A stretch of DNA of 64,000 nucleotides from Leucoraja ocellata (Eukaryota). The translations under genes and the position numbers were made by a program. This document shows, piece by piece, positions 29,801-32,225 of this stretch. The stretch spans positions 62,001 to 126,000 of the forward strand of contig JAWMAR010000647.1 of the NCBI GenBank assembly GCA_036785375.1. Reading direction: 5' to 3'. The notes under the pieces are model-generated. The model was not told where the DNA came from. It was given only the letters and a program-made list of their open reading frames with translations, and searched no databases. Numbering within the stretch: position 1 is the first letter of the stretch; each line of letters opens with the position of its first letter.

Positions 29801-32225
29801 GTTAAATTTGGGGGAAAAAAAAGTGGAATGCCTGTATCATATCATCATATAATCTATCTATATTAATAAAACTCTTCTCTTGTTTGTGTGAGTGAGAGGT
29901 AGAGGGGCGGGCAGGCAGAGGGGGGCGGGCAGAGGGGGGCGGGCAGAGGGGGGCGGGCACAATCTAGTTAATTCCTATTTTCTTCCAACCGCTAGGCCAC
30001 AGCCTTCCCATTTTCACACATTCTACTCACATTTTTCCGGTCGAGACGATAAACATCATCCCGTCGCATTCTCACCTATATTTCTGACGCCCGGTGGGGA
30101 GGGTGGTACTGGAGCTGGAGTGAGAGCCGAGCCCGGGGCTTGGGATGGGGCTGTGACCGGGGCCGAGCCCGAAGATGAAGTTGTAGCCTGCACTATGGCC
30201 CAGGCGGCGGTGAAGCTGATGGCTCGAGTCTACAGCCAGGGCCGGGCCGAGTATGAGAACCAGGCCGAGTTCCAGGCCCTGGCGTTGCTCTACGACCTGG
30301 GTGGGTGCTGCAGCAGGGAACGCGAGTGAGGGGAGGAGGATGAGGGATATGAGGGTGAGAGGAGGGGGTAGTTGCCACGTCCCCCTCACTCCCACGTCCC
30401 CCCCCCCACCCACTCCGCCTCCCCTCCCTTTTGGGGGCTATGCGTGCTTGGTGCAATATTGCGTGGGGGAAACAGGTTGCGTTGGGGGAATGGGTGGAAT
30501 CTTGCTTTGGGGGGGGCACTTGGTCTAGTCTACTATAAAACTATCTTCCAATTCACTCCAACCATGGCTATTCTACTAGATCCTTCAAAATTGGATACGT
30601 GTTAGTTTTATCGAGCCACTAAAAACTTGTCTAACATAATTAAATCCCAGGAACTTAGCAATAACTGGAAATCTTATATGAATATTATACTAGATATAAT
30701 GAAAAAGGTTTGTGACACCTGTTTTTCACTGAAATATACAGTTCATCTCACAAAATTAAAGAAGTTGTTTATATATAAACAAGGAACACATCCATTTGAT
30801 TACCTGCCCCTTTCCCTTTTCTGCGTGTTCCTCTTTTATTAGCCATTGAAAGCTCTATTTCCTCTTGTGGCATTTTTGCCACCTTCTGTAGAAACAGCTT
30901 CTCCAGTGCTTGTGCCATGAGAACTATATCGTCACCCGGCTATAAAACAGACACTGGTTATGTTGATAATGATATAACCTTAAAAAGATTTACAGAGCAA
31001 TGTAAAATGCAATCACATACCCGATTATATACATAGCAGTTGGTAAACATTGTATTTAAGTCCTCTATACACTCCATAGCTTGACAATAATATTTGTTTT
31101 CCAAACGTTTTTTTATTGTACCCAAATCCATTGGCTTCTTTGTTATTTGATAATAATCCTGCGAGAACAAAACATTGACAATTAGATCAGTATTTAGTTA
31201 TTTTTAATTTTTCCATTGCTTTATTAGTTCATCATTTAATAGGATTTTAAAATTCAACAAAATGTATAGAAGGGTCTCAACCCGAAACGTCACCTATTCC
31301 TTTTCTTCAAAGATGCTGTCTGACCCGCTGAGTTACTGCAGCTTTTTGCGTCTATCTTTACTTTAAAACAATCCTGTGAACATGTAGACTTTAAAAATTG
31401 GGAAATTAATAGTTAGGTAGAGCATAGTATTTATTCACTCTTCAGTAAAGGAAGGAAGGTATCTCCAAAAAAAAATTATGATGAAATGCAAAATATTTTT
31501 GGGTCAGTTTGTGTTCATATGTCAGCAGAAATCTGCAGCAGATTTGGATGGAGAAATTATCAAACACCACCTTGATGCTTACCAATGATATGACAGTGGG
31601 TCTAGGGTGAGAAAAGATAGACAAAATGTTGATAAAACAAAACATGACAAAACGAGCAAGGTTAAGGAAACATATTTTGTTAGGAAAAATAAATGCAATC
31701 AATGGAAAAATGAAATCCTGAAATAACACAAGAGAGACTGCAGCTGCTGAGATTTAGTGCATAAAGAAAAACTGCTGGAGGAACTCTGGGTCAGGCACCA
31801 TCTGGAAGAGCAAAGGAATAATCGATCCTGATCCAGGGAAATGCAGATACAACAGAAGCTAGGAGTTGATTAGTAGAGATAGAGGGTTAACAGATTATGC
31901 AGCAAATTAAAAAAAAAAAGGTGAAGACCAAAACCACGTAAGAGATGATACGATAAAAATATACACGTACAGGCAAATTCAGCTTCACAGCATCAACAGG
32001 CTGCTGGAATGGCCATGCAAAATGGTGCTTCCACAAAGCTTTAATCACCACTTTCTGCAAATATTGCAACTGATTTGTCATGCTCCTGGTTTTATTTGGA
32101 TTGCAGTATTCTGGTGGCTGAGGATTCACACATGTACGTTCATGCAAGGCCCCATTTTCTTCCTTTGATGACATGACAAGTTCTTCAGAGGCAATTGCTA
32201 TTTTGTTATTATAAAAAATGTCCAT
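5752..32225 (-). CDS. brdt: BET-family bromodomain protein, BRDT-like (11 coding exons, ~690 aa: BD1, motif A, BD2, motif B, ET, SEED)
   Basis: Spliced join: 32225-31971, 31158-31021, 30939-30804, 29142-28994, 25427-25080, 17393-17265, 15414-15229, 8573-8389, 6471-6185, 6092-5973, 5891-5752. Total 2073 nt, open, phases consistent. BRDT-like residues: [27 protein letters not shown]. Confidence 0.85.
5973..6092 (-). CDS. brdt: brdt exon (post-ET coiled coil)
   Basis: Boundaries tgtgtag|...|gtatgt; encodes [35 protein letters not shown]. Confidence 0.92.
6185..6471 (-). CDS. brdt: brdt exon (ET domain)
   Basis: Boundaries atacag|...|gtgagt; encodes [72 protein letters not shown]. Confidence 0.96.
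7467..8276 (-). mobile_element. Young CR1 (HER1-like) LINE, 5'-truncated
   Basis: ORF2 C-terminus KCEVIHFGG...[15 protein letters not shown]...; 3' tail of TTTCTATG-type repeats; nearly identical to the copies at 27.1-28.1 kb and 63.5-64 kb. Confidence 0.95.
8389..8573 (-). CDS. brdt: brdt exon (motif B and basic region)
   Basis: Boundaries ctgccag|...AG|gtacag; encodes [35 protein letters not shown]. Confidence 0.93.
8925..9016 (+). repeat. Short interspersed repeat 3' end with an (aag)n tail; a related copy lies at 41848-41945 on the minus strand
   Basis: tttaggctgtgcacgc...aagaag is shared, in inverted orientation, with the 41.9 kb copy. Confidence 0.55.
9387..9892 (-). mobile_element. 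Penelope-like element fragment (GIY-YIG endonuclease plus terminal repeat with a hammerhead motif)
   Basis: Minus strand encodes [20 protein letters not shown]...[11 protein letters not shown]; downstream is ctgaagaatggtcttgacccgaaacgtc. Confidence 0.88.
10427..10642 (-). repeat. 3' LTR of a Gypsy element
   Basis: TGTA...TACA termini, polypurine tract cgggaaagga immediately upstream on the minus strand, and an internal AATAAA at ~10469-10474. Confidence 0.75.
10705..11682 (-). pseudogene. Gypsy integrase remnant (catalytic core and C-terminus; HHCC and first Asp missing)
   Basis: Motifs [55 protein letters not shown]. Confidence 0.85.
11667..14390 (-). CDS. Gypsy gag-pol polyprotein (Gag zinc knuckle, protease, RT, RNase H)
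   Basis: Uninterrupted ~907 aa [71 protein letters not shown]. Confidence 0.93.
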   Translation of the reverse strand: MASSCRKPSPLVFDADIAERWDTFVMDYNHYVNIAHRNDPAAVKAFLLLNLAGPDAMRRAKSFVYRPAVLGEDDQLVEPAESPDDPVCLLRKFTEICDLPSNRILERARFFSRKQQPEEPVECFIADLRHLSQRCRFGELCDQLTRDILVTGMLDQKLRSDLLRRPDLTLNEAVHACRIAEVVTPFREERGSGNRAVRVAALSVPRRPPNCFKPQPRPAPAPRPQSARKCPNCGYGHLPQSPCPAYGKACNYCRKQNHFAAVCRSHGNAAQPPRQVFSNLQRIESVLDSQYIEESAPESDSSISMGDASVYALLHNQTRLPDPSVLVTVNDKTFAAKLDSGAKVSVISTSLFHQIRSNERLTADRSVLRAYRGEELTPVGRVTFHCKLQKTSRDLSFFVLDCDCVPLLSNQACQDLGLVAFDSTVHEVRVVLDPVSEYPGLFDDQLGKLPLVYKITTDSSITPVCRPSRRVSFAMKDKVKAMLDKMVNLGVLEAISKPTSWVSTMVATIKKGKNEIRVCINPKDLNTAIKRPHYPMRTVEDVAAQVGQATVFSVLDARSSFWQIPLHSQSTDLTAFATPFGRYKFLRMPFGISSASEVFQRSMEQLFAGLPCAIIVDDILVYGRDVTEHDRNLRRVLDRAHQINLKLNPSKCRFQLSEVSYVGHIFTSRGLKPDPNQTAAISEFPAPVDVAGLQRFLGMVNYVGKFVPCLSELSAPLRLLTKKDVAWSWSPQHQQSFDNLKKMLVNTPVLRFFDLRLPIVVTCDASRFDLGAACMQLCDGDSLLPVSFASRTMTDTEQRYAQIEKELLAVVFACSKFRDFLFGVRFMVETDHQPLVTILIKPIHAAPARLQRMMLQLQRFEFNIVYRRGTEMHVADALSMLCPYEQEDLHVLNVNFVPSKQLRCRLR
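15229..15414 (-). CDS. brdt: brdt exon (end of BD2 and Ser-rich linker)
   Basis: Boundaries gcacag|...CAG|gtaaca; encodes [10 protein letters not shown]...LAQLQDQ. Confidence 0.93.
17265..17393 (-). CDS. brdt: brdt exon (BD2 C-terminal half), followed by a GC donor
   Basis: Boundaries ataag|...CAG|gcgagt; encodes [43 protein letters not shown]. Confidence 0.93.
18640..18990 (-). mobile_element. Rex1/Babar LINE reverse transcriptase fragment
   Basis: Minus strand gives [17 protein letters not shown] and a degenerate LLFIDxSSAFN. Confidence 0.7.
19113..19870 (-). mobile_element. RTE-clade LINE 3' fragment
   Basis: LLYGAESWT...QLRWTGHV...[10 protein letters not shown], a C-terminal CPRC...HLQTH zinc finger, and a (GAT)n tail. 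Confidence 0.88.
23496..23862 (+). mobile_element. Non-autonomous Tc1/mariner (pogo/Tigger-like) MITE
   Basis: Imperfect TIRs caggtcaaccaccaattatc / gaaaatcagttgtagacttg, followed by TA. Confidence 0.55.
25080..25427 (-). CDS. brdt: brdt exon (motif A and BD2 N-terminal half)
   Basis: Boundaries aaag|...|gtaagt; encodes [16 protein letters not shown]...[36 protein letters not shown]. Confidence 0.96.
25940..26250 (-). mobile_element. Degenerate Penelope-like GIY-YIG fragment
   Basis: Homologous to 9640-9890 (gcctcactcttgcaatggaggaagcccagg). Confidence 0.7.
26455..28190 (+). mobile_element. GC-rich non-autonomous retroelement with AATAAA and a (tgtat)n tail, itself interrupted by CR1
   Basis: CpG-rich body at 26455-27104 resumes at 28075 and ends gaggttcaaatgacatgtaataaatattgtatattgtattgtat. 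Confidence 0.65.
27105..28074 (-). mobile_element. Young CR1 LINE, 5'-truncated, with an open 258-aa ORF2 C-terminus
   Basis: FADDTKLGG...LQGDLDRL...[11 protein letters not shown]; catagaaacatagaaa tail. Confidence 0.95.
28994..29142 (-). CDS. brdt: brdt exon (inter-bromodomain linker)
   Basis: Boundaries ctgccag|...AAA|gtaagt; phase 1 to phase 0 matches both neighbours; S/T/P-rich. Confidence 0.85.
29853..30528 (+). mobile_element. Non-autonomous Helitron-like element containing a captured gene fragment
   Basis: Host A|TCTATCTATATTAATAAAA ... GGTCTAG|T host; no TSD or TIR; GC-rich interior within an AT-rich intron. Confidence 0.7.
30224..30300 (+). pseudogene. Captured exon fragment resembling SAC3D1 (SAC3/GANP domain)
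   Basis: [26 protein letters not shown] followed by the donor G|gtgggt. Resembles my recollection of SAC3D1 (RRCYARG...RQPAFQGLFLLYNLG). Confidence 0.55.
30804..30939 (-). CDS. brdt: brdt exon (BD1 C-terminus)
   Basis: Boundaries ttttatag|...G|gtaatc; encodes [29 protein letters not shown]. Confidence 0.96.
31021..31158 (-). CDS. brdt: brdt exon (BD1 middle)
   Basis: Boundaries ctcgcag|...|gtatgt; encodes [46 protein letters not shown]. Confidence 0.96.
31971..32225 (-). CDS. brdt: brdt first coding exon (exon begins at 32262; BD1 N-terminus)
   Basis: Acceptor tttaacag|, donor CCT|gtacgt; encodes [49 protein letters not shown]. An alternative start Met lies at 32174. Confidence 0.93.

Follow-up and report, generated by a model that had tools for sequence, protein, structure and literature searches.

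The capture of gene fragments by Helitrons is a known kind of event. Its closest parallel to the case described here is HelibatN3 of vesper bats, in which the first exon and a partial intron of NUBPL reached about a thousand copies (PMC4224331) and which carries the gene's own promoter and six codons only. Heli1Xen1 of Xenopus laevis is likewise a vertebrate Helitron with captured coding fragments, mostly 5' parts of genes (17/19), with an example copied 17 times and 64 cargo insertions overall (PMC12001565). We analyzed a window of 64,000 nucleotides from the skate Leucoraja ocellata (GCA_036785375.1, contig JAWMAR010000647.1, forward strand positions 62,001 to 126,000), which contains a non-autonomous, internally deleted Helitron at 29853-30528 on the plus strand. 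By its sequence, the cargo of this window copy is identified as a piece of skate SAC3D1, a member of the SAC3/GANP family (PF03399) that forms a TREX-2-like SAC3D1-PCID2-SEM1 complex acting on UAP56 (PMC13391367). We consider it highly probable that this piece, deleted in part, was captured once as genomic DNA, was copied by a transposase from autonomous Helitrons to hundreds of sites or more, and has decayed neutrally since.

Compared to HelibatN3, the longest cargo of the skate family comprises about 260 codons from inside an exon, has neither an ATG nor its own promoter, is located behind Helitron-borne motifs and has been serially deleted. While the Heli1Xen1 example was copied 17 times, the junction of a single skate fragment is matched exactly at 542 or more places. 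The skate case is therefore notable for its scale and its lineage, and it adds cartilaginous fishes, at the scale seen in bats, to the vertebrates with high-copy Helitron capture, a phenomenon well documented in vesper bats and, with few copies, in Xenopus. A literature search returned no report of a SAC3D1-carrying family or of Helitron capture in skates; Repbase and Dfam were outside this search and may hold the family. The hundreds of SAC3-domain fragments can mislead the annotation of skate genes.

The preliminary description had proposed Helitron-like boundaries (A/TC and CTAG/T, the slash marking the joint) without target duplication or terminal inverted repeats, around a GC-rich interior. 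In the window copy, A29852 is followed by TC at 29853, and the CTAG that runs to 30528 is followed by T. One extra TCTA unit at the left end gives an alternative start at 29857 (A followed by TCTATATT), with which TCTA would be present on both sides. No terminal inverted repeat was found for this copy among the 16 inverted pairs listed between 28500 and 32000. The element is a GC-rich island within an AT-rich intron, with 63-66% GC across 30100-30499 versus 22-43% when 29300-29899 and 30600-31099 are divided into bins of 100 bases. The ends were also surveyed at 90 cargo-bearing loci, 50 chosen by similarity and 40 taken among the 100 pattern hits listed first, a set in which some haplotype pairs remain. 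The left end was detected at 41 loci (A/TC in 34) and the right end at 46 (CTAG/T in 42). Among copies taken by their 3' end, T followed in 29 of the first 30 matches. The flanking direct repeat never exceeded 2 bp in the 26 sister copies with both ends found, that is, there was no target duplication. Both the proposed boundaries, in the window copy as in its sisters, and the GC-rich interior were thus confirmed, and the ends are of the canonical (Helitron1) type.

The 3' end of the family consists of a 19-bp hairpin (8-bp stem, GCAGACCC-AAC-GGGTCTGC) located 11 bases before the terminus and followed by ACTTGGTCTAG. The geometry is the same as in Helraiser of bats, where a 19-bp palindrome lies 11 nucleotides from the end (PMC4778049). 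The corresponding part of the window copy has a folding energy of only -0.6 kcal/mol (z 0.72). A 19-base pattern of the family 3' end had 10,176 exact matches in the genome and its control had none; SAC3D1 was found within 1.5 kb at none of the 30 first-listed matches, and the cargo therefore marks a minority of the family. A genome search for Helitron_like_N gave 120 matches among 150 candidates, with open frames of up to 1851 amino acids (aa), and the 1851-aa frame matched both Helitron_like_N (E 6.8e-54) and PIF1 (E 2.7e-68). The family hairpin and CACTTGGTCTAG were located downstream of the RepHel frame at all four long-frame loci fetched, whereas of four decayed RepHel loci one had a variant end and three had none that could be seen. 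As far as the 3' ends are compared, the autonomous RepHel elements of this genome and the SAC3D1-carrying subfamily have them in common. A cut-and-paste (Pack-TIR) element or a retro-element bearing the fragment, with TC and CTAG at its ends by chance, could draw on the 4-bp TCTA repeat that a start at 29857 would give around this single copy, but this explanation is already refuted by the missing inverted repeat, the missing target duplication in 26/26 two-ended copies and the 3' end that the family has in common with RepHel elements.

Near-identical RepHel frames of 1,000-1,851 aa were observed at G000:C2153:36656-42208 (L126:6657 to L127:2209) and also on C2974, C168 and C175; being near-identical and intact-looking, they suggest that the autonomous family was recently active. 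Cargo-free Helitrons of the same family were seen in head-to-tail arrays with units of about 300-620 bp (L088/L089, L090/L091, L097/L098 and L100/L101 on G000:C1, L126-L127, and L132), and at the array junctions CTAG is followed by a left end without its first TC. The flanks after CTAG are often left-end-like (TATA..TAAAA), those of the window copy included. At one locus (L082:5938 and ~6470, G000:C456), a single cargo copy is followed by two different Helitron right ends in series, a GGGACCC-type ending CACTTAGTCTAG and then a GCAGACCC-type ending CACTTGGTCTAG, which possibly reflects a swap or bypass of the 3' end.

The cargo had been noticed as a SAC3D1-like peptide of 26 residues, which is read in frame +3, with the exon-like part extending to G30300 and GT at 30301-30302. 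With the window peptide alone, Pfam gave SAC3_GANP at E 0.024-0.11, which is below the cut-off, and a longer sister copy was needed for identification. A 73-aa piece of such a copy matched only the SAC3D1 of two skates (2 hits among 6 candidates, 78-80% identity), and residues V260-L283 encoded in the window are identical to the Rhinoraja protein at 24/24 positions (23/29 for Amblyraja). In the family, the protein homology stops in codon 284 at G/GTAGGT, and the interior of the window copy ends exactly at the equivalent G30300/GT, as originally noted. The segment 30085-30223, on the other hand, had been suggested to be a second captured piece and turned out to be the Ala-Glu-Pro-Gly repeat of the same SAC3D1. 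The SAC3D1 part of the longest copies opens at about R26, with no ATG and none of the 25 initial codons, and reaches into codon G284 by one base; GTAGGT and G-rich sequence of up to 1.2 kb then separate it from the right end. Compared to the SAC3D1 protein, the cargo lacks the start codon and the C-terminal 160 residues, and most copies have stops or frameshifts. These fragments are not gene copies and cannot make SAC3D1 protein.

For comparison with orthologues, 13 orthologues and 15 long copies from 19 loci tried were used, and sequences with fewer than 60 aligned residues were kept out of the tree. The majority sequence of the cargo has an identity of 91% with Rhinoraja, 88% with Amblyraja and Leucoraja, 73-76% with other rays and 48-54% with sharks, and it contains both the skate-only Ala-Glu-Pro-Gly repeat and a 2-residue insertion of skate SAC3D1. 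The tree groups the cargo with batoids (support 100). The skate-type identity, the skate-only insertion and the batoid placement together point to a capture in the skate lineage. In the skate proteins themselves (P0002, P0003 and P0005, residues ~73-180), the Ala-Glu-Pro-Gly repeat occupies about 100 residues within the SAC3 domain region, and it is absent from the other rays, sharks and caecilians compared.

A DNA search of the 3.44-Gb genome with the element gave 3306 candidates, of which 40 were scored, and a search with the whole SAC3D1 protein gave 7580. A 20-mer spanning the exon end and the donor had 542 exact matches, whereas its reversed control had none; since the controls of this pattern and of the 3'-end pattern (10,176 matches) were both empty, the window element is not a chance assembly. 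The claim that the element spread a captured piece of a host exon is borne out by these junction matches. The 20-mer was present in 16 of 50 copies picked without using it, so that 542 exact matches would correspond to roughly 1,700 places. As a rough estimate, the cargo copies may number from about 1,000 (those with the longer exon piece) to about 1,700, haplotype duplicates included; the piece has thus reached hundreds of places, and likely more than a thousand. Another assembled copy, L002, was considered as an independent insertion and rejected, because it matches the window at 98.4% over 3.7 kb with flanks and is the same locus. The assembly therefore has duplicated haplotypes, and the counts may be up to about twofold too high.

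The cargo subfamilies range from near-complete codons 26-284 to remnants of about 12-25 bases. Shorter subfamilies have lost 10 bp before YSQG or, as in the subfamily of the window copy, about 88 codons; in a further one, the loss leaves only about 12-25 bases ahead of the donor (15/40 pattern-picked copies, judged by eye). This deletion ladder is a record of how the cargo was whittled down over successive amplifications.

The decay of the cargo was followed in 44 copies, after an earlier set of 40 was dropped in which 15 were not homologous in this region. The copies are 5.8% diverged from the majority, and the three codon positions diverge equally, with 3.2, 4.4 and 4.1% at non-CpG sites and 14-16% at CpG sites. 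In none of 33 gap-free sister copies is the peptide unchanged. At the donor, the +1 G differs in 6/48 copies and the +2 T in 0/46, while most other positions differ in 1-8, and the donor thus appears not visibly better kept than the adjoining bases. These patterns indicate that the cargo copies decay neutrally. The window copy has two silent changes only in the V260-L283 region, which probably explains why its peptide was noticed. The left junction of the window insertion was bridged by contigs in the runs of all three organism labels, with the insertion present in all three DNA runs, and the right junction was bridged by at least 31 letters in one of the three. The insertion is of sufficient age to be common to the runs of three organism labels, whose flanks differ by up to about 4%.

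The cargo is bounded by a left part and an unchanged right end of Helitron origin, which fits a chimeric end bypass with a second, downstream element supplying the end. Chimeric end bypass was seen for HelibatN539 (PMC4224331), and bypass with transduction was shown for Helraiser (PMC4778049). We propose that a Helitron left end became positioned inside the initial coding exon of SAC3D1, at around codon 26, within the skate lineage. Replication would have read through the remaining exon, its donor and part of the intron until it met a downstream Helitron right end; alternatively, the piece might have been copied in as filler DNA. Serial deletions would then have yielded the subfamily ladder, and the window copy would later have lost a promoter-like module and the hairpin, its donor changing to GTGGGT. 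The cargo might instead have arrived as RNA, by retroposition of a partial SAC3D1 transcript into a Helitron, with amplification afterwards. Bats do have retrogenes nested in Helitrons (PMC4224331), and the intron of the parent gene was not available for comparison. However, the protein homology breaks off at a canonical GTAGGT, after which comes G-rich sequence rather than the next coding part, and SAC3D1 residues 285-444 had no match anywhere in the genome, so that only unspliced RNA would fit. We regard arrival as RNA as very improbable; a donor followed by non-coding DNA favours capture as DNA.

Several observations weigh against the interpretation as a captured, neutrally decaying SAC3D1 exon. 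At least half of the 90 surveyed loci had no end detected by the search patterns, and there was no empty site among the read joints listed, so that the ends rest on the alignment of the family. The naive ratio of nonsynonymous to synonymous differences (pN/pS) was 0.58, which we tentatively attribute to CpG and transition bias because the codon positions diverge equally. The position of the cargo inside the batoids was not settled by the tree (supports 38-68). The parent sac3d1 locus was absent from the results of all five queries of the assembly, namely the Pfam family, the whole protein, the C-terminal 160 aa, the N-terminal 75 aa and a degenerate pattern. The Pfam search gave 11 matches among 17 candidates, which were GANP exons (C35) and Helitron copies only. 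With the whole protein, 95 of the 7580 candidates were scored and none reached residues 1-22 or beyond 287; the C-terminal query matched 0/20 candidates, the N-terminal query matched 10/22 but none before residue 23, and the pattern had no match with up to 2 mismatches. Hence, the exon boundary and the intron origin were deduced from the GT and from where the homology ends, and the G-rich stretch after the donor would be SAC3D1 intron. In the paralogue GANP, the intron lies about 5 codons further on and has a different phase, which lends no support to a boundary in SAC3D1. The failure to find the parent says little, since nothing assignable to LENG8, which we take to be the third member of the SAC3/GANP family, was seen in the SAC3_GANP search of the assembly either. 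An assembly gap is likelier than gene loss. The longest copies (L042/L043) were considered as the parent and rejected, as no further exon follows within 20 kb and the two are duplicates of a single locus.

The layout of promoter-like motifs, exon and donor raises the question whether the family is an exon trap, in which chimeric transcripts start from Helitron motifs and use the SAC3D1 donor, and which aided the spread or was co-opted. A GTGACGTCACAATG-like motif (up to 2 mismatches) was found upstream of the donor in 19/25 DNA-hit and 23/40 pattern-picked copies (0 and 1 in the flank controls), and a GATTGG..TGTCA motif in 12/25 long copies (control 0); we presume that the motifs of the sister copies are of the CRE, NF-Y and TALE types. 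In a poly(A) run of a related organism, of which about 6 in 100 reads were read, reads matched the family, mostly at 88-95% identity. HelibatN3 has been demonstrated experimentally to trap exons (PMC4778049), whereas the skate family is known here from its sequence; a similar layout could act in the same way. However, that run listed no read spliced from the donor, conservation of the donor does not visibly exceed that of neighbouring positions, and the window copy lacks the module and lies antisense. Autonomous elements that carry no cargo have the motif as well, in the form of a related 14-mer, and it is therefore Helitron-borne. On balance, we consider exon trapping by the family unlikely. 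Equally doubtful is the broader picture of some 1,000 mobile promoter-exon-donor cassettes in skates, a share of which would start chimeric transcripts, with the extreme case of a parent sac3d1 that was lost even as copies of its first exon multiplied.

The host gene is encoded by the minus strand, with exons at about 32185-31973, 31158-31023 and 30939-30806 and the next one at 25430, and is a BET bromodomain gene whose best structure-bank matches are BRD4 and BRD2. The insertion had been assigned to an intron of brdt; the intron of a BET gene was confirmed, and the name brdt is plausible, although structure-bank and atlas searches could not separate it from other BET genes. Since the element is antisense, the donor at 30301, whose use in RNA had been raised as a possibility, is unusable for host mRNA. 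In addition, the window copy lacks about 150-190 bp at 30083/30084, which in sister copies contain a TGACGTCA (CRE-like) module and a GC-rich leader, and its donor reads GTGGGT instead of the GTAGGT of the family. Its unique flanks had no reads in the poly(A) run described above, and most poly(A) reads placed on the element derived from other copies. The window copy is likely a late, short derivative, an inert passenger of the intron and likely without function. The coordinates of its parts are given in Table 1.

Table 1. Parts of the SAC3D1-carrying Helitron and the nearest host exon (window positions).
Feature	Position	Strand	Remarks
Non-autonomous Helitron, 676 bp	29853..30528	+	Internally deleted member of the SAC3D1-carrying subfamily; two-ended sisters 0.85-2.5 kb
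Left terminal sequence, starts A/TC (alternative start 29857)	29853..29892	+	
14-bp G-rich tandem repeat	29903..29958	+	Varies between the two assembled copies of the locus and between runs
Helitron 5' internal region common to sisters	29955..30083	+	
Putative remnant of SAC3D1 codons ~66-70 (LVxRV)	30090..30105	+	Weak alone: 15/16 bases, E 0.053 vs L042; longer sister L024 supports
Skate-specific Ala-Glu-Pro-Gly repeat region of SAC3D1	30109..30229	+	Joined to the next part by the ~88-codon deletion
SAC3D1 codons V260-L283 and first base of G284 (P0003 numbering)	30228..30300	+	24/24 residues identical
Donor-like GT (GTGGGT; family majority GTAGGT) and G-rich stretch	30301..30370	+	Putative SAC3D1 intron start
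Helitron 3' region, end CACTTGGTCTAG followed by T	30434..30528	+	Family 19-bp hairpin absent here
Nearest host BET bromodomain exon	30806..30939	-	Element in the following intron, antisense

Three other features of the window were observed. A long frame at 11670-14447 on the minus strand, inside a later intron of the BET gene, is gag/pol-like and presumably belongs to an element resembling long terminal repeat retrotransposons. An open frame at 35206-35550 on the plus strand resembles what we take to be the N-terminus of a hAT/ZBED-type transposase. A very high-copy short repeat is located at 31268-31358, in the intron between the bromodomain exons, and was by far the deepest part of the window in all four runs.

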